In this document: one piece after another, positions 5,123-64,000 of the stretch
How positions within the stretch are numbered: position 1 is the stretch's first letter
Layout: each line of letters begins with the position of its first letter
Assembly (NCBI GenBank): GCA_963827235.1
Contig: CAWHAE010000014.1
Span: forward strand, 32,001 to 96,000
Length of the DNA: 64,000 nucleotides
Direction of reading: 5' to 3'
DNA from: an uncultured bacterium
GTDB taxonomy: Bacteria; Chloroflexota; UBA5177; JANWHV01
The notes under the pieces: generated by a model
Databases searched by the model: none
What the model was told of the DNA's origin: nothing
The model's input: the letters and a program-made list of their open reading frames with translations, nothing else
Program-made: the position numbers and the translations under genes

Positions 5123-5147
5123 TTGACGTGGTAGAATATATGTACTA
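5123..5147 (+). promoter_or_regulatory. Promoter elements overlapped by a LexA-like palindrome
   Basis: TTGACG at 5123, extended -10 TGGTAGAAT at 5129-5137, imperfect palindrome TAGAATATATGTACTA at 5132-5147. Confidence 0.5.
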
Positions 5148-5164
5148 GAAACAGCGGTGGCAAG

Positions 5165-24289: not shown

Positions 24290-24377
24290 TGGTGCCGAGG
24301 AGGAGACTCGAACTCCTATGGGCGCAATGCCCGCTAGCCCCTCAAGCTAGTGCGTCTGCCAGTTCCGCCACCTCGGC
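24290..24377 (-). tRNA. tRNA-Leu (anticodon GAG), CCA encoded
   Basis: GCCGAGG...CCTCGGC-A-CCA acceptor, CTAGC-TTGAGGG-GCTAG anticodon arm, long variable arm, GTTCGAGTC T-loop. Confidence 0.97.
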
Positions 24378-26293: not shown

Positions 26294-28228
26294 ATGGCAG
26301 GACAAAGACCAGGCGGCGGCAATCGGGGCAACGGCAGACGTCCGGGTGGTGGCGGTCGTCCTCGGCCGTCCGGCAGGCGGGGGACATCGAGGTGGACCCG
26401 GTGCCGTCGGCTTACTGGAGAGCAGCGATGACTCCAGATCGTCGGTCGATAGACCGCATTCTATCGAGCTGCCTTCCGTCATGACGGTCAAGGAGCTGGC
26501 AGACTCGCTGGCCGTCGAGCCGGTGCAGGTCATGAAGCTCCTGATCAAGAACGGCATGATGGCCACGATCAACCAGGAGATTGACTACGATACCGGCGCA
26601 ATCGTGGCCTCGGAGCTGGGCGTGGAAGCCTCGGAGCAGAAGCGGGCCGAGGTCGAGGTGGACGCGCGAGCCGAGGCTTCGCATGGCTCGTCTGTCCTGG
26701 ACGAGGACCCGGCCAAGTTGAGGCCGCGTCCTCCGGTGGTCACGATCATGGGTCACGTCGACCACGGCAAGACGTCACTGCTCGACGCGATCCGCCAAAC
26801 CAACGTCGTCGCCGGAGAAGCTGGAGGAATCACCCAGCATATCGGAGCCTATCAGGTCGAGAAAGAGCGGGAGGAAGATCACCTTCCTCGACACGCCCGG
26901 TCACCAGGCATTCACCGCTATGCGGGCTCGTGGCGCGCAGGTGACCGACCTAGTGATCATCGTGGTGGCGGCGGACGACGGTGTCATGCCACAGACGAGA
27001 GAGGCGATCGCGCATGCGCGCGCCGCCCGAGTGCCCATCATCGTCGCAATCAACAAGATCGACACGCCCGGCGCCAACCCCGATCGGGTGAAGCAGGAGC
27101 TTGCGCAGGTTGGCGTCCAGGTCGAGGAGTACGGTGGAGACGTAGTCTGCGTCGAGGTATCGGCCAAGAAGAAAGTCGGGCTGCAGGAGCTGCTCGACAT
27201 GATTCTCCTGGTCACGGAGATCCAGGACCTGAAGGCCAATCCGGATCGGCCGGCGTTGGGCACCGTCGTAGAAGCACGTCTTGATCGCATGAAGGGCTCG
27301 ATGTGTACGGTACTGGTGCGCAGCGGCACGCTTCGACTCGGCGATACCGTCGTCGTGGGCAGCGTCTACGGCCGGATCAGGGCCATGTATAACGATCGTG
27401 GCAAAGCGATCAAGGTGGCCGGACCGTCCTTCCCAGTCGAGATCCTCGGGCTGCTCGACGTGCCCGCGGCAGGCGACACCCTCCAGGTGTTCGGCGACGA
27501 GAAGTATGCGCGAACGCTTGCCGCGGAGCGGGCGCGTGAAAAGCGCGCGGAGTCGCTACAGCCTACCAAGAAGCTTGGCCTGGCCGACCTGTCGTCGTTC
27601 ATACAGGCCGGTCAGATGAAAGAGCTCAATATCGTCCTCAAGGCAGACGTCAAGGGCTCCGTTGAAGCGGTGAAGAGCGAGTTGGAGAAGCTTTCCAACG
27701 AGACCGTGAAGCTAAGCGTGCTCCTGGCCGACACCGGACCGGTCACCGAGTCCGACATCCAACTGGCCGCGGCTTCGCAGGCAATCGTGGTCGGCTTCAA
27801 CGTGCGCCTGGACCCTGGGGCCAAAAACGCCGTGACGGCCACTGGCGTGGACGTTCGCTTCTACGACATCATCTACAAGCTGACGGAGGACATCGAGGCC
27901 GCTCTGCGAGGTATGCTCGATCCATCGTATCAGGATGTCGTGACTGGGCACGCCGAGGTGCTGCAGATCTTCCCGGCCTCCAAGACCGAGAAGGCAGCTG
28001 GATCGCGGATAGTCGGACGGCACTGTGCACCGGGGGGACAATGTCCGGGTGCTGCGAAACGACAAGGTGGTCGGCGAGACCAAGATCACGTCGCTTCGGC
28101 GCGGGCGCGATGACGCGCGTGAGGTGAACGCCGGCTTCGAGTGCGGCATCGTGCTGGATCAGTACAACGATTTCGAAGTCGGAGACGTTCTCGAGACCTG
28201 GACGCGGGAAAAGGTAATATCTGCATGA
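26294..28228 (+). CDS. infB: Translation initiation factor IF-2 (three apparent +1 indels at ~26363, ~26863, ~28015)
   Basis: GGAGG RBS; [27 protein letters not shown] and GFECGI motifs spread over frames. Confidence 0.93.
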
Positions 28229-32956: not shown

Positions 32957-34133
32957 GCGACCACGGCGGGACGATGCATGGCAGAGCGATGGGCCGCGGC
33001 AGCTGGCTTTGTTCGACCTACCCGAGACCAGCAAACATGAGCGCGCGGGTACCGGACATCTAGCCACCGATCATGGCTCGCAGGCAGCGCCTGGGGCCGA
33101 AATCGCGTCTCTCCAGGCCATAGACGAGAAGCCCACGGACGAGCGACCCGCCAGGAGCGGCGATCTGGCTCTGGCGGAAGCCAAGGGTGCCACAATCGCC
33201 CTGCGGCCGCTCGTCACGACGCTGCGCGCGGCGATCGAGGAGTACAAGCAGTACCTGGCGGCAATGAACCGCTCCAAACACACTCGCGAGAGCTTTGCCC
33301 TCGATCTCAGACTGCTGCTGGAGCATCTGGGCAACGCACCACTGCAGAACATCGGCGAGCGTGAGTTGCGCTCGTTCATCAGTTGGGTGAGCGTGCAGCG
33401 CGGCAATAGCGCCACATCCGTGCGCAGGAAAGTGGCAACGCTCAAGAGCTTCTTCGCTTACTTGCACCGCGAGCGCGCCATTGCCATGGATCCCGCGGCA
33501 ACGCTGATCTACCCGGAGATCTACCCGGCGCTACCCGAGTTTCTCGAGGATCAGCAAGTCGAGGACCTGCTGGCTGCGGCCGAGGAGCACCAGTTCTGGA
33601 ACGCGCTCGTGATGCTGATGCTGGCCACCGGCCTGAAGCGCGATGAGGTAGTGGCCCTGGGCCGCTCGGACGTCGTGCTGGCGCCTACCGGTGGTGAGTC
33701 GTATCTGGTGGTTCGGGAGACCGAGCAAGCGAAGCGGCTGCGGTCGCGTCGCCTGGATCTCGATGGCGAATTGGTCGACGTGCTGGCAGGCTACCTTGCT
33801 GCGCAGCCGGTCCGCGAACGGTTCTTTGACGTTTCAGCCCGCGGCGTCAACTTCATCGTCGAGACCTGCGGGCGGCGGGCGCACATCGCCGCCAAGGCCA
33901 ACAAGCTCACGCCCCAGATCCTGCGCTCCACCTTCGCCGTGCGAGCCATGCGCGCGATGATAACGGCTGAGGATGCACAGCGTATGGCTGGCGTATCTGA
34001 GATCACGGTGGCCGGTGTGGCGGAGCAGCACGATCTTCAGCTACTGAGGCTGCTCGGATTACACGAAGAACCGGAGTCGGCCAAGAAGTACCGCAAGCTC
34101 GTGCGAGGCTGGTCGGCGCACACCAGGCAGTAG
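32946..34133 (+). CDS. Xer-like tyrosine recombinase homolog with substituted catalytic residues
   Basis: Core-binding domain (TSVRRKVATLKSFFAYL, LPEFL); TGLK, QILRS and LGL instead of TGLR, HxLRH and LGH. Confidence 0.8.
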   Translation: MADRRPRRDDAWQSDGPRQLALFDLPETSKHERAGTGHLATDHGSQAAPGAEIASLQAIDEKPTDERPARSGDLALAEAKGATIALRPLVTTLRAAIEEYKQYLAAMNRSKHTRESFALDLRLLLEHLGNAPLQNIGERELRSFISWVSVQRGNSATSVRRKVATLKSFFAYLHRERAIAMDPAATLIYPEIYPALPEFLEDQQVEDLLAAAEEHQFWNALVMLMLATGLKRDEVVALGRSDVVLAPTGGESYLVVRETEQAKRLRSRRLDLDGELVDVLAGYLAAQPVRERFFDVSARGVNFIVETCGRRAHIAAKANKLTPQILRSTFAVRAMRAMITAEDAQRMAGVSEITVAGVAEQHDLQLLRLLGLHEEPESAKKYRKLVRGWSAHTRQ

Positions 34134-48198: not shown

Positions 48199-48314
48199 GC
48201 CACGGCACCCCACTGAGAGTCCGATTCCCCTTCTGAACTCCCGTGAAGCCTTGACGCGGGGTACACTTGGCACAAGACGTAGCCGACCTCCACAGCGATC
48301 GGGAGCGAGATCAC

Positions 48315-49322
48315 ATGGCCGCAACAACACCGGATCGTCGCGCCGACCGGAAGCCTTCGACCCGGTGTCAGGTTTCAGCCGCCTCGTCAGGCTCGCCTGC
48401 GACGCTACCGAGCGCTCTGGGCCGGGCGATCGAGGAGTTCTTGCTCGACGAGCTGGCCCGGCGAGGTGAAAAGGCGCAAAGCCTGCGAGCGCGGACCTCC
48501 GACACGCATACACTTCTCGAGTGGGCGATCGGCCAGGGCGTTGCCGAGCCCGAACGGCTGACTCGCAACGTGCTGCGGAGCTGGATTGCCACCCTGCACG
48601 CGCAGGGCTATGCGCGCAGCTCCATGGCCCGCATGCTCTCGACGGCCCGCTCCTTTCTTCGCTTCTGCGAGATCAGGGGTGCGACGATCGATCGCAACGC
48701 GCTCTCGCTGAGCGCGGGCAGGCAGCAGCGGTCGCTGCCGGCGGTGTTGACGGAGCCTCAGGCGGCGCGCTTGCTGGATAGCCCGGCTGGTCGGTCTGCC
48801 GGCAACCGAGATCCTCTGCAGCTCCGCGACCAAGCAGCACTCGAGCTCCTCTATGGCGCTGGGCTGCGAGCAGCCGAGCTCTGCTCGATTCGCCTCGACA
48901 GCTTGTCCCTGGAGCGGCGCGAGCTGATCGTGATGGGCAAAGGTGCCAAGGAGCGGCGAGTGCTCTTTGGCCAGCCTGCGGCGCGGGCCGTGGAGGCCTA
49001 TCTTTCACGCTCCAGACCGATGTTGGTAGCCGGCGCGCGCGGGCACCAGGCGCTGATAGTCAACTGGCGAGGCGGACCGCTGACTGCGCGCGGACTCGCT
49101 CTGATCGTGGAGCGGCGCGCCGTCGCGGCAGGACTGACCGGCGGATTGCATCCGCACACGCTCCGCCACTCCTTTGCCACCCATCTGCTCAACGGTGGGG
49201 CGGATCTCAGGACGGTCCAGCTTCTGCTGGGACACGAAAGCCTGGCCACCACGCAGAAGTACCTGCACGTGGCGGATCCGACGCTGCGGCAGCTCTATCA
49301 CCGCTGCCACCCGCGCGCATAA
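48315..49322 (+). CDS. xerC: Tyrosine recombinase XerC (CodV-like)
   Basis: Complete catalytic set: GLRAAE, GKGAKER, HTLRHSFATHLL, LLGH, TQKY; upstream of hslVU. Confidence 0.88.
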   Translation: MAATTPDRRADRKPSTRCQVSAASSGSPATLPSALGRAIEEFLLDELARRGEKAQSLRARTSDTHTLLEWAIGQGVAEPERLTRNVLRSWIATLHAQGYARSSMARMLSTARSFLRFCEIRGATIDRNALSLSAGRQQRSLPAVLTEPQAARLLDSPAGRSAGNRDPLQLRDQAALELLYGAGLRAAELCSIRLDSLSLERRELIVMGKGAKERRVLFGQPAARAVEAYLSRSRPMLVAGARGHQALIVNWRGGPLTARGLALIVERRAVAAGLTGGLHPHTLRHSFATHLLNGGADLRTVQLLLGHESLATTQKYLHVADPTLRQLYHRCHPRA

Positions 49323-56526: not shown

Positions 56527-57665
56527 AACGCGTCGTCATCCTTGGCAGCACCGGCTCGATTGGCGTTCAGACGCTGGACGTGGTTGCCCGGTTCCCAGAC
56601 AAGCTCCAGGTGATCGGCCTGGCTGCGCGCCGACAGGAAGTGCTTGCTGCACAGGCGCAGGCGCATTCAGTCCCGCTGGTGAGTATCGGCAACGCGGCTA
56701 TCACGGCTGACTTCCCTGCCGGCACGACTGTGCTCGCGGACCCCGATAGCCTGCAGACCATGGCGACGCTGCCTGAGGCAGACGTCGTTGTGGTCGCGAC
56801 GGTGGGGCGTGCCGGACTGGCGGCAACGCTCGCCGCGTTGCGTGCAGGCAAGCGCGTGGCGCTCGCCAACAAGGAGGTTCTGGTCATGGCCGGCGAGCTG
56901 GTGCGGCGGACCGCTCGCGAGCATGGCGGTAGTCTGCTGCCCGTGGATAGTGAGCACAGCGCAATCTGGCAATGTCTGGTAGGCGAGAGCCACTCGAGCG
57001 TGCAGCAGATCATACTGACGGCGTCCGGCGGTGCCCTGCGTGAGCTGCCGCTGGAGTCGCTGCGCTCGGTAACACCGGAGCAGGCACTGCGACATCCGAC
57101 CTGGAAAATGGGCCCGAAGGTGACCGTTGACTCCGCAACGCTGATGAACAAGGGACTCGAGGTCATCGAAGCGCACTGGCTGTTCGACTGCCCATACGAG
57201 CGCATCCGGATCGCGATACAACCAACCAGCTCCGTACATTCACTGGTGCAGTTCGTGGACGGATCGGTAAAGGCCCAGCTTGGGCGCCCCGACATGCGCG
57301 TACCCATCCAGTACGCGCTCAGCCATCCCGAGCGCTGGCCATACCCCGAGATGCTAGTCGACATAACAGCGTTTGGCAACCTTCAGTTTGCTGAGCCTCA
57401 GTGGGAGCGATACCCGTGCCTGCGACTGGCACTTGAAGCCGGGAAGCGCGGCGGCACATACGCGGCCGCCCTGTGCGCCGCGGACGAGCTGGCAGTGGAC
57501 ATGTTCATCGCCGGCGCTATTCCGCTGACCGCGATCTCGGAACTGGCAGAACGGGTGCTCGATCTGCACCAGGGAGCGGTAGCGCCGAGCCTCGACAACG
57601 TGCTGGCGGCAGATGCGTGGGCGCGCGAGTGCTGCCTGAAGGTCTACAGGTCCGGCACCTGGTGA
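56523..57665 (+). CDS. dxr: 1-deoxy-D-xylulose-5-phosphate reductoisomerase
   Basis: LGSTGSIG, LANKE, PVDSEHSAI, HPTWKMG. Confidence 0.97.
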   Translation: MKRVVILGSTGSIGVQTLDVVARFPDKLQVIGLAARRQEVLAAQAQAHSVPLVSIGNAAITADFPAGTTVLADPDSLQTMATLPEADVVVVATVGRAGLAATLAALRAGKRVALANKEVLVMAGELVRRTAREHGGSLLPVDSEHSAIWQCLVGESHSSVQQIILTASGGALRELPLESLRSVTPEQALRHPTWKMGPKVTVDSATLMNKGLEVIEAHWLFDCPYERIRIAIQPTSSVHSLVQFVDGSVKAQLGRPDMRVPIQYALSHPERWPYPEMLVDITAFGNLQFAEPQWERYPCLRLALEAGKRGGTYAAALCAADELAVDMFIAGAIPLTAISELAERVLDLHQGAVAPSLDNVLAADAWARECCLKVYRSGTW

Positions 57666-58451
57666 GAGCGGCTTCAGCCGACGTGCTCCTTGAATCGCCG
57701 GATCGCCGCGATGTGCTGAGCCGGACCTGCCAGGCTGGCACCCGTCGTGTTCAACGACAGATGACTCGCGCCTTGCGCTCGCAAAGCCCGAACCATATCT
57801 GCCCACCTTTCGGCCGTGCCCCCGGCGTAGGTGATGCGGCCCTCGACGGCGATTGCCGCCGATCCCTGCCCGCCGCAATCGCCGTGCCATGAATCGTCTC
57901 GATTGCCGCGCTGAGCGAATCATCCGGCGGCAATTGCGGGAACCAGCCGTCCGCGAGTCTGCCGACCCTGCGGAGCGTCGCCTCGGTGCCGCCGCCCAGC
58001 CAGTTTGGAAGCGGCTGCCTACCGGCCGCGGACCGATGCCCGCAGCCTCGATGGTGTGCCAGCCACCGCGAAAGGTGACCGAATCCCGGCTGAACGGGGC
58101 TTTCAGGACGGCGATTGAAGCAGACCGATGCGCCTGCAGAGTCGGGGCGCGTCTGGTCGACTCGCCCGCTGAGCCAAACGGCGCGGCCCGAGGCGACAAG
58201 GCGGCATGAACAACGTAACGGAGATGGCTGGCTGACCGCACCCGGGAACCAGACCGCTTGGTATGCTCAAGTGAGGTCTTGACCGCTCTTTCGACCCCTG
58301 AGGCCCTCGCGGAGGGACACGGTAGCGGCGGGATCAACCTTCACGCCGCAACTATCAGGGCGGGCCGAGCATCGATTCGCTCCCCGGCTGGCAAGTGGCA
58401 TCGCCCCGGCGCACGTCGACGGCCGTGTGCATGGCAAAGCAGAGATACACG

Positions 58452-59511: not shown

Positions 59512-60252
59512 ATGATGATCGCTTTGAGCGCGCGCGAAGGGGGCTTTCCGGTGCCGGTAATCGAGGTGGCCATCGTCGGTGATTACGACCCGGTCTCGCC
59601 CACGCACGTAGCCACCGACGCTGCTCTGGAGCACGCGGCTCGGCGCATCGGCGTGAAGGTTCGCAGCACCTGGATACCAACGCCGGAGCTGGACGCCGGC
59701 GCGGAGCAGCGCCTCTCAGGCTACGGCGCCGTCTGGTGCGCGCCCGGCAGCCCGTATCGCAGCTTGAAGGGCGCCCTAAACGCCATTCTCGCGGCACGTA
59801 CGACCGGTACGGCGTTCATCGGCACCTGCGGCGGCTTCCAGCATCTCGTGCTGGAGTACGCGCAGAACGTGCTGGGCATCGAGGATGCGAGCCTCGCCGA
59901 GTACAATCCGTACTCCTCGCGGCTTTTCATCACAGCTCTGGCGTGCTCGCTGGTGGGCAAGACCATGCAGGTCAGGATCAACCCGGCCTCACGAGCCTTC
60001 CAGGCCTACGGCTGCGAGACCGCCGAGGAGCACTACTACTGTAAGTTCGGTCTCAACCAGCAATACCGTGCGCAGCTGCATGATGCGGGACTTCGCGTAG
60101 TCGGCACGGACCAGGACGGCGAGGCACGCATCGTCGAGCTGCCCACGCATCGCTTCTTCATGGGCACGCTCTTCGTGCCGCAGACATCCTCAACGTTCGA
60201 TCACCCGCACCCGCTTATCGTGGCGTACCTTCAGGCAGCGCTCAAGGAGTAA
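59512..60252 (+). CDS. Stand-alone CTP synthase C-terminal (glutamine amidotransferase)-related protein
   Basis: IVGDY, PGSPY, GTCGGFQH; FVPQ replaces FHPE; no synthetase domain. Confidence 0.8.
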   Translation: MMIALSAREGGFPVPVIEVAIVGDYDPVSPTHVATDAALEHAARRIGVKVRSTWIPTPELDAGAEQRLSGYGAVWCAPGSPYRSLKGALNAILAARTTGTAFIGTCGGFQHLVLEYAQNVLGIEDASLAEYNPYSSRLFITALACSLVGKTMQVRINPASRAFQAYGCETAEEHYYCKFGLNQQYRAQLHDAGLRVVGTDQDGEARIVELPTHRFFMGTLFVPQTSSTFDHPHPLIVAYLQAALKE

Positions 60253-60300
60253 TGAGTGAGGGCAGGACGCGTGCCCGACCGGAGCCGGGCAATAATGTCA

Positions 60301-60328
60301 TCTTCACATAACCTACATTATCAGAAGT
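60301..60328 (-). other. dif-like XerC/XerD recombination site
   Basis: Minus strand ACTTCTGATAA-TGTAGG-TTATGTGAAGA: 11+6+11 layout with ATAA/TTAT inner ends and a TTATGT XerD-type arm. Confidence 0.8.
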
Positions 60329-60457: not shown

Positions 60458-60736
60458 CTACATGACCTGGACACGGGGCAGCAGTCGGATCGCTGAGCGC
60501 CGGCAGACGGCGCTGCAGTCGCCGCAACCGTAGCACCGCGCCGGGTCAACCTGAATCTTGGCCAGCAAGGACGAGTAGATCAGCGCACCGCACCGGCTGT
60601 GTTTGGAGCAACGTTGACAGCCTCGACACAGCTCCGAGTCCACGCGCGCAACGTACTCGCTCCGCAGGTAGCTCTTCTCGACTATCTTTTCGACAGGCGC
60701 CTCCCTGCCGGCGAAGCGGCGTACGCGCTCGCTCAT
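60458..60736 (-). CDS. 4Fe-4S ferredoxin-like protein, probably truncated/degenerate
   Basis: CRGCQRC (following Cys-Pro absent) and CYGCGDCSAVC motifs. Confidence 0.6.
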   Translation of the reverse strand: MSERVRRFAGREAPVEKIVEKSYLRSEYVARVDSELCRGCQRCSKHSRCGALIYSSLLAKIQVDPARCYGCGDCSAVCRRSAIRLLPRVQVM

Positions 60737-60820: not shown

Positions 60821-60852
60821 TCTATGATATACATAGAGTGCTACGCTGTCAA
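60821..60852 (-). promoter_or_regulatory. Sigma70-type promoter with operator-like inverted repeat
   Basis: TTGACA-17-TATCAT; TCTATG-ATATA-CATAGA overlaps the -10. Confidence 0.6.
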
Positions 60853-61015
60853 CGGGGCAGAGGTGCGGATTGGACTCCAGGTCACCGAGCCATGCAGATA
60901 CGACACTGATTCTTCCGATTCGGAAAAAGCAACTTTGTCGTACCGCGGAAAAAGCAATCTTGCGTCAGTCTGCAGGGCTCATGAAGACTGCGACAACTCG
61001 TTCGCGCACCAGGCA

Positions 61016-64000
61016 GGCTTCCCAGTAGTATTCGCCGAAAAAACAACGGATAGAGCGCTGGCCATGGGCACGGGTGACGTGCGCAGATTAGTTCCGTGGC
61101 GACACGAGTGTTCTCGGAGGAGGAGCTGGAGCGTCTTCGGGGCTTTCCGGAGATCAGTGGTGAGGCGCTGCTGCGGTTCTTTACCCTTACTCCAGCAGAG
61201 GTGGAGTTCATCGCTCCGGGCCGGGGTCGCGGTCCGGCGGACCGCCTGGGTCTGGCTATTCAGCTGTGCACGCTCCCTTGGTTGGGGTTTGTCCCGGACG
61301 ATGTCGGCGCGGCTCCGACGGCTGCGGTCGCCCGGCTGTCGGAAAGGTTGGCTATCCCGATAGGGGAGCTGCGCTTCTATGGCCACCGGGAGCAGACACG
61401 TACGGACCATCTTGGGATGGTGGCGCGCTATCTGGGTTGGCGGCAGGCGGGACCGTTGGAGCTGGCGGCGTTGGATGAGGTCCTCTTGGCCAGAGCGATG
61501 GAGCACGATTCGCCCACCCTCCTGTTCCGTCTGGCAGGTGAGCAGCTGATCTCCTCCCACGTGATCCGACGTGGTGTCGTCACCTTGGTCGGGCGCGTGG
61601 CCAAGGCGCGCGCGGCGGCGAGCTGGGAGACCTTCGATCGCGTTGCCCATCTGCTCACGCGTAAGCGGCAGGAGGAACTGGACGCGCTGCTCGTGGTCGA
61701 TGCCGCAATTGGTACCACCCGCCTGGCCTGGTTGGGCAGGGGTCCGACTGAAGCGTCCGCTGCAGCCGTGAAGGCGGAACTCGGCAAGTTGCGGTACCTG
61801 CGCAGTCTGGACGCCCACACGCTCGATCTGTCGACGTTGCCAGCCGCACGCCGCCGCTTCCTCGCCGCTGTGGGTCGGCGACTGAGCGCACAAGCGTTGG
61901 CACGGCGGGAGCCGGAGCGCCGGCATCCGATCCTGCTGCTGCTGGCCCAATCGGCCAGCGACGTGTTGGACGAGGTGATCCAGCTGTTTGAACCAGGCAC
62001 TGTCGGCCGAGAGAGCCTGGCGCGCCACCGGATGATCGAGCAATTGGCCGAACGCGCTAAGTCTGGTGAGGACTGCCAGGCGCTGCTCGATGACATCCTG
62101 GCGATCGTGACCGACCCCGCGATCCCCGACGAAGCGATCGGGGCGCTGATCCGAGGCGATCGGATCGGGTGGGAACGGCTGACGGTGGCGGTCGCAATGG
62201 CACCCGCGCGGTTACCCCGCGATCACCGTCACCTGGCGCGGGTAGCTACCTCCTACCTGTACTTACGCCAGTTCTCACCAGGGTGATCGACGCCATCGAC
62301 TTCGTGGGGAGCAGCACGGCGCAGCCATTGATTGCAGCGCTGAGCATCCTGCGGGAACTGAACGCGACCGGGGCGCGCAAGGTGCCCAAAGGGGCACCGA
62401 CTGACTTCGTCCCCACCCGCTGGCGGGGGTACCTGGAGCAGGCCGCCACAGCGGGGAACCCGACCGCCTATCGGCATTACTGGGAGTTGACCGTGTTGCT
62501 CGCCTTGCGGGACGGGCTTCGCTCCGGGGATGTGTCCGTTCCAGGCTCCCGACGCTATGAGAATCCGACCGCCTACTTGATCGCCCCCGCTACGTGGGAA
62601 AGCCAACGGGCGACGTTCTGCCAGTTGGTGGGAAAGCCCGCCACCGCATACCTCGCGCTGCAGCAGGCCGACGCGGAGCTACGGACTGCCCTGGCAGCGT
62701 TGGAGCGGGTGCTGGCTTCGGGAGCGGGTCCGATCCGTGTGGCTCAGGACGGCGACCTTGTCATCCCACCGCTTTCCGCCGAGGACATCCCCGCTGCGGT
62801 GCAGGCGTTAAAAGCGGAACTGGCCGAGATGCTCCCCCATGCGCCGATTGTCTCGCTGCTCATCGAACTGGACCGGCGCACTGGCTTCCTGGACTGCTTC
62901 ACCCACGCAGGAGGCAAGCAGTCCAGGAGTCCCGAGCTCACGCGCAACCTGATCGCGGTCCTGGTTGCCAGCGCAACCAACCTCGGTCTGGTCCGGATGG
63001 CGGAGTCCTGTGGCATCTCCTACGAGGTGCTGGCCTGGACTGCGGAGTGGTATGTGCGAGAAGAGACGCTGCGGGCGGCGAACCTGGTAATCGTGAGCTA
63101 TCACCAACGGCTGCCGCTCGCCCGGGTCTTCGGCGGTGGCACCCTGTCCAGCTCGGACGGTCAGCGCTTCCCGACCAAGGGTAAGTCGCTGACCGCGCGC
63201 GCCCTGTCACGCTATTTCGCTGACGAGGGGCTGAGCACCTATACCCACGTGACTGACCAGCACGCGACGTACGGGACCAAGGTCATTGTGGCCACCGACC
63301 GCGAGGCGCATTATGTCGTGGACGATGCTCGGCAACGCCACCGACCTGCCCATCACCGAGCACGCCACCGACACCCACGGGGTGACCCTGGTCAACTTCG
63401 CCTTGTTCGATCTCGTCGGCCTCCAACTTTCGCCCCGCATTCGCGACCTGGGCAAGATCACCCTGTACCGGACTGGCCCAAGAGCCGCCTTCGAGGAGAC
63501 CTATCCCACTGCGGAGATATTGCTGACGCGACGGCTGAACACCGCGCTGATCGCCGAACACTGGGACGACCTGCTCCGGTTGGGCGGCTCGCTCAAATTC
63601 GGGCACGCCACTGCATCCTTGATCGTCGGCAAGCTCTCTCGCTCGGATCGCCAGCAGAATGCGGTCGCTGCCGCGCTCAAGGAGTACGGGGCGCTGCGCC
63701 GTACTATCTTCACAGCGCGCTACCTGACCGACGAGGCCTACCGGCGGAAGATCACCCGGCAACTCAACAAGGGCGAGAGCATCCATGCGCTACGCCGAGC
63801 ACTGCACTATGCGCACCAGGAAGCGGTCCGTCAGCGGCACCTGGAGCAGCAGACCGAGCAGGCCTGGTGCCTGACCCTGGCCACCAACGCCGTCGTGACC
63901 TGGACCACGGAGTACTATGGCCTGGCGGTGGCGGCGATGCGGGGGCAGGGGCGGCGGGTGGACGACGAGGCGCTGGCCCACATCTCCCCCGCGCACACCG
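61016..64000 (+). mobile_element. tnpA: Tn3-family element: degenerate left end plus frameshifted transposase (CDS from 61096, runs off window)
   Basis: N-terminus RLGLAIQLCTLPWLGF (DUF4158-like); SSSDGQRF, TDTHG, QLNKGE DDE motifs; frame breaks at ~62280 and ~63325. Confidence 0.9.

Follow-up and report, generated by a model that had tools for sequence, protein, structure and literature searches.

The closest described relatives of the site reported here are the dif sites of Bacillus subtilis, Escherichia coli and Frankia alni (the last of them a prediction), which served as seeds in the survey of Kono et al. 2011 (PMC3025954) and whose sequences are given in the Methods of that paper. The survey predicts dif in 16 phyla, including in three Dehalococcoides, which are the sole Chloroflexi in it, the profiles used having come from other phyla. 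A full-text search of the literature for dif in Chloroflexi or Dehalococcoides found this paper only. The predicted Dehalococcoides sites belong to the same phylum as the DNA studied here, and the comparison with them is one of phylum.

Here we analyze a stretch of 64,000 nucleotides (hereafter the window) from a 461,890-bp contig of an uncultured Chloroflexota bacterium. Near its right end lies a 28-mer, ACTTCTGATAA-TGTAGG-TTATGTGAAGA on the minus strand, with an 11-6-11 layout and imperfectly inverted arms, which, judging from its match to known sites, is very probably an Xer recombinase site (Table 1). The B. subtilis dif (the CodV/RipX site), as it stands in the Methods of Kono et al. (PMC3025954), is likewise a 28-bp 11-6-11 sequence; it is identical to the window site at 19/28 positions, with both left arms starting ACTTC and both right arms starting TTATGT.AA. 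The two differ in the center (TGTAGG in the window versus TATATA), the inner left arm (GATAA versus TAGAA) and the end of the right arm (GAAGA versus AAACT). The E. coli seed from the same source has the core ATAAT.TA..TTATGT.AA in common with the window site (18/28 identical positions), and the predicted F. alni dif, whose center reads GCACA, is also identical at 18/28; in both of these, the outer left arm is unrelated to that of the window site. The latter is a divergent variant, with TGTAGG as its center and an A as the outermost base of its right arm.

The site and its neighborhood

A sequence-only reading of the window had picked out this 28-mer as an AT-rich, dif-like element invisible to the track of open reading frames, and its placement is confirmed. 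The site is intergenic and lies in a 205-bp gap in which both adjoining genes end in convergent orientation, 48 bp from the stop codon of the amidotransferase gene and 129 bp from that of the ferredoxin ORF. It occurs only once in the window even when up to 3 mismatches are allowed (matches in shuffled sequences: 0/100). Its G+C content is 9/28, as against approximately 64% for the window, in which 54 of the 63,973 possible 28-mers, forming 9 clusters, are equally AT-rich. As read from the sequence, the arms match as inverted repeats at 8/11 positions, owing to the mirroring of C5 by G24 and of C2 by G27.

The immediate surroundings of the site hold little else. No tRNA or Rfam family was found near it; the sole tRNA gene of the window, a tRNA-Leu(GAG) at 24290-24377 on the minus strand, is far away, and a tRNA-type integration target is therefore not involved. 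The repeats around the site are short and probably chance pairs. Directly adjoining the putative XerD arm is CAATAATGTCA, at 60290-60300 on the plus strand, whose ATAATGT and the ACATTAT within the site (inner left arm) are inverted copies of each other, 16 nt apart. Read on the strand of the site, this ATAATGT is an extra ACATTAT that follows the 28-mer, and it has a counterpart in 0/118 other dif-type sites among the matches listed from the genome scan described below.

Table 1. Features at and around the putative Xer site, in window coordinates
Feature	Position	Strand	Evidence or remarks
Gene order toward the site	43.0-60.25 kb	+	RrnaAD rRNA adenine dimethylase, mfd, Xer-family recombinase, hslV, hslU, rpsB, tsf
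Gene order, continued	up to 60.25 kb	+	pyrH, frr, uppS, cdsA, dxr, rseP, amidotransferase
Xer-family tyrosine recombinase, intact	48267..49322	+	Pfam Phage_integrase 2.6e-42; directly upstream of hslV, hslU
Glutamine amidotransferase, CTP synthase C-terminal region-related	59512..60252	+	NF004836 310 bits, cut-off 260; left flank of site
Putative dif-type Xer site, 28 bp	60301..60328	-	14/16 seed-invariant positions, PWM, uniqueness
Putative XerC arm, ACTTCTGATAA	60328-60318	-	Analogy with E. coli and B. subtilis sites
Central region, TGTAGG	60317-60312	-	6 bp
Putative XerD arm, TTATGTGAAGA	60311-60301	-	Analogy with E. coli and B. subtilis sites
92-aa ferredoxin ORF	60458..60736	-	Two 4Fe-4S Cys motifs; Pfam Fer4 families ~5e-6; right flank of site
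Sigma-70-like promoter match, TTGACA-17-TATCAT	60824..60852	-	11/12 consensus; upstream of ferredoxin ORF
Tn3-family left terminal inverted repeat	~61016..61053	+	Alignment with two actinobacterial plasmid copies
Tn3-family transposase, runs off window	61096..64000	+	Three frame pieces, collinear with intact 1003-aa relative

Match to published dif seeds and to a wider family of sites

Raw identity to the three seeds is a weak test, because two unrelated 28-mers of the window also score 19/28; it was accordingly dropped as non-discriminating, and we used instead the 16 positions that are identical across the E. coli, B. subtilis and F. alni seeds. The 28-mer agrees with 14/16 of these (the mismatches being positions 17 and 28), and the second-best place in the window reaches 11/16, so that no better dif match, which the sequence-only reading had named as counter-evidence to itself, is present elsewhere in the window. 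Simulating the window 60 times with a first-order Markov model never yielded 14 (the maxima were 13 in one, 12 in 12, 11 in 43 and 10 in 4 simulations), and the expected number of 14/16 sites from base composition is 1.1e-3 per window or 0.07 per 4 Mb.

We then looked beyond the seeds with a scan of genome contigs, using a pattern that fixes 20 positions of the 28-mer. It matched at least 119 loci, with exactly one match in each of the 119 listed, and the phyla among the matches listed include Bacillota, Actinomycetota, Nitrospirota, Acidobacteriota, Planctomycetota, Omnitrophota, Thermodesulfobacteriota and others. Several positions left free by the pattern are nevertheless strongly biased among the 119 listed sites, namely position 1 (A in 108/119), position 16 (T in 110/119), position 27 (C in 98/119) and position 28 (T in 107/119), and the two bases 5' of the 28-mer are T in 86/118 and A in 77/118. 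Since these pattern-free positions agree, we take the retrieved sites to be one family of functional sites and not a product of chance. The likeness to dif claimed from the sequence alone is thus borne out by the seed-invariant positions, the simulations and this family of single-copy sites.

The window site carries the majority sequence of these ACTTCCGATAATATATATTATGTAAACT-type single-copy sites (119 listed) at 21/28 positions, among them the free position 1 with the A that the family prefers, and has the upstream TA as well. Like it, the listed sites are AT-rich islands, even in high-GC loci. It departs from them by G16 and G24, each found in 0/119 of the listed sites, and by G17 and A28, found in 4/119 and 3/119, respectively; position 24 also differs among the three published seeds and, like position 27, is variable in true dif sites. 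With a position weight matrix (PWM) built from the 119 listed sites, the window site scores 29.1 bits (consensus 60.5), and the runner-up, at 2.6 bits, is the same site on the opposite strand.

The flanks of these sites were surveyed in 60 of the 119 listed loci, which have full 2-kb flanks and, to either side, an open frame of 80 codons or more, the other 59 having been omitted for their short flanks. By the crude ORF heuristic used, the longest flanking frames converge, as in the window, in 27 of the 60 loci, run in tandem in 28 and diverge in 5, and 5 dif-type sites fall within a long open frame. None of the 119 matches listed has flanking genes in common with the window, and no Chloroflexota-labelled locus is among them. 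In the sole record among the matches listed that is titled a complete chromosome (L111, 3,159,449 bp), the site is found approximately 48% of the way along, a position opposite the origin only if the record begins at the origin. A tyrosine recombinase gene occurs in the fetched flanks of 8/119 listed loci (L003, L044, L047, L048, L057, L066, L073 and L078); they may be Xer genes, each linked to its own site, or else encode the integrases of elements that have inserted at dif.

Core genes and an Xer recombinase on the left

To the left of the site, 14 consecutive plus-strand genes run toward it, in keeping with what had been seen in the sequence-only reading, and among all called genes on this side the coding bases amount to 37,371 on the plus and 10,023 on the minus strand (79% plus). 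That reading had also placed an intact xerC about 11 kb away. An intact Xer-family recombinase does end 10,979 bp from the site, but XerC cannot be told from XerD: the NCBIfam models TIGR02224 (XerC, 272 bits) and TIGR02225 (XerD, 255 bits) do not separate the two for this protein, because both scores are under the cut-offs. When aligned to E. coli XerD (1a0p), it displays the Arg, Lys, His-x-x-Arg, His and Tyr motifs. Its closest named homologs are proteins from Chloroflexota metagenome-assembled genomes (57-67% identity), and its top match in a plasmid collection, which is without a Chloroflexota replicon, is 44% identical. As in the window, the B. subtilis recombinase gene adjoins homologs of hslV and hslU, in the order codV-clpQ-clpY. 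The protein is a candidate for the enzyme that acts on the site.

It is also the one catalytically complete Xer gene in the window, and a second Xer may be located outside it. Another tyrosine-recombinase-like ORF lies at 33066-34133 on the plus strand, 3' of rnc, and is matched weakly by the Xer models (80-90 bits). In the 1a0p alignment, it is without the catalytic Arg, the His-x-x-Arg His and the second His; it is not a credible XerD because these catalytic residues are missing and, on this alignment, may represent an inactive or repurposed version of the recombinase fold.

A ferredoxin ORF and a Tn3-family transposon on the right

The sequence-only reading had mobile and decayed DNA beginning right after the site, and neither part of this description is upheld. 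What comes first is the ferredoxin ORF, preceded by its promoter-like match, which was the one site found in a search for sigma-70-like promoters (shuffle mean 0.3). In a search of 5.8 billion proteins for those of nearly its own length, this ORF was its own sole match; the protein may be confined to its lineage or be a fragment. The mobile DNA proper starts at approximately 61016, 688 bp from the site, where a Tn3-family transposon has its left terminal inverted repeat: the mutual homology of two actinobacterial plasmid copies of the element begins at the GGGG-type repeat GGGGTCCCGGTAGTAATGG, with which the window aligns over the interval given in Table 1. The transposon is an independent insertion, which arrived by transposition and not via the site. 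Its transposase DNA shares approximately 71% identity with plasmid-borne copies from Rhodococcus, Mycobacterium and Nocardia, and similarity at the DNA level to these begins at the transposase gene itself (query position 843, corresponding to window position 61095).

As for decay, the frame shifts twice by a single base between the three transposase pieces (residues 1-395, 396-744 and 745-968), near 62280 and again near 63325, and no residue is lost. Elsewhere in the window, a single-base frame change near 26880-26925 likewise leaves infB (IF-2; 26346-28113) in two overlapping frames. Given that infB is essential and shows the same type of frame change, the breaks in the transposase are no less likely to be assembly indel errors than signs of decay. 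Just outside the Tn3 repeat, there are two direct copies of CGGAAAAAGCAA(C/T)(T/C)TTG at 60921-60962 on the plus strand, 25 nt apart, and an inverted repeat at 60899-60942 overlaps them; together, the repeats at 60899-60962 may form a protein-binding site.

Search for replication-terminus signals

The GC skew inflection expected near 60.3 kb by the sequence-only reading did not materialize, there being no skew switch within the window. Bulk GC skew climbs across the whole window and flattens from 57 kb. Calculated on plus-strand letters, the third-codon GC skew is -0.018 for plus-strand genes and +0.052 for minus-strand genes; as it is thus close to zero, the bulk skew reflects coding strand and not replication, and it was dropped as evidence for a terminus. 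The E. coli KOPS and B. subtilis SRS motifs show no skew in the window, and a de novo search for skewed 7- and 8-mers gave no signal, the top 7-mer having p = 7e-4 among 2565 tests. On the right, these tests cover 3.7 kb, which is mostly transposon. Gene orientation does converge at the site.

Discussion

We interpret the 28-mer as very probably a XerC/XerD-type site and, with a rough probability of 0.65, as the chromosomal dif of this organism, a divergent variant in Chloroflexota. On the model of E. coli and B. subtilis, from whose Xer systems each of the steps is drawn, FtsK at the septum would bring the sister copies of the site together after replication and would switch on the recombinase at the TTATGT arm; a chromosome dimer would then be converted into monomers through two pairs of strand exchanges, made at the borders of the 6-bp center. 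Should this hold, an uncultured Chloroflexota genome would have its dimer-resolution point, and probably its terminus region, here; the few dif predictions in Chloroflexota would gain a divergent member, which could aid in orienting and closing the assembly as well as in building a phylum-specific dif profile. Knowledge of the Xer systems themselves is unchanged by it.

IMEX elements, such as the CTX phage and the gonococcal genetic island, reside at dif, and in the window, too, mobile or accessory DNA lies beside a dif-type site. The sequence-only reading accordingly suggested an IMEX-like integration on the right. The 28-mer would then be a secondary Xer site, either an IMEX junction or a degenerate copy, and the functional dif would lie beyond the window or elsewhere. 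This would account for the bases at positions 16, 17 and 28 that are rare among the 119 listed sites, and it would suit the accessory-looking right side, where an ORF that matches only itself is followed by a transposon. The eight recombinase genes in the flanks of the 119 listed loci point the same way, since by their count mobile or Xer genes beside dif-type sites are not rare. Against it, and unlike in the known IMEX elements, no second flanking dif-like site is visible in the window: PWM and half-site scans of the 64-kb window found neither a second dif-like site nor a half-site pair, and with them no trace of the degenerate copy that had been anticipated to the right. Further, the 3.7 kb on the right contain no phage or plasmid replication gene, no phage-, plasmid- or island-type cargo abuts it (what is there being the ferredoxin ORF and then the Tn3 transposon), and the sole demonstrably mobile DNA, 688 bp off, is bounded by its own Tn3 inverted repeat; positions 24 and 27, for their part, are variable among true dif sites too. 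Integration of the IMEX type thus has no positive support in the window; we consider a secondary site unlikely but worth keeping in view, as the window extends for 3.7 kb on that side. It is quite improbable that the lineage has a non-canonical dif, with a GG center, near-symmetric arms and possibly a single Xer recombinase in place of a XerC/XerD pair, or that the 28-mer is one end of an Xer-integrated island with its other end beyond the window.

An AT-rich palindromic operator of a dimeric regulator, a feature of a terminator region or mere chance might be suspected from the arms, which by hand count are more symmetric (8/11) than those of the E. coli and B. subtilis seeds (6/11), and from the extra ACATTAT, which pairs with the inner left arm and for which 0/118 other listed sites have an equivalent. 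However, a 14/16 match by chance is expected only 1.1e-3 times per window, the 20 fixed positions and three of the free ones are common to a single-copy family spanning multiple phyla, and there is no promoter beside the 28-mer, both neighboring genes terminating there; we judge an origin of this kind very improbable. Finally, the lack of a resolvase gene between the inverted repeat and the start of the transposase could be taken to mean that the Tn3-family transposon resorts to the host Xer and uses the 28-mer as its resolution site. This is scarcely credible, as the left inverted repeat leaves the 28-mer 688 bp outside the element and the similarity to the plasmid copies sets in only with the transposase gene, at 61095; a location of the 28-mer inside the transposon is ruled out by the mapped repeat.

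Two other stretches of the window deserve mention. The 730-bp gap between dxr and rseP (57666-58394) has no family match, and the only long ORF there, at 57354-58337 on the minus strand, is without a Pfam or NCBIfam match or a coding-type GC3 signal. An AT-rich stretch at 5123-5153 on the plus strand, 5' of a small ORF, scores 19/28 against the B. subtilis dif seed; having no TTATGT arm and low invariant-position and PWM scores, it was rejected as an Xer site and is probably a promoter region.
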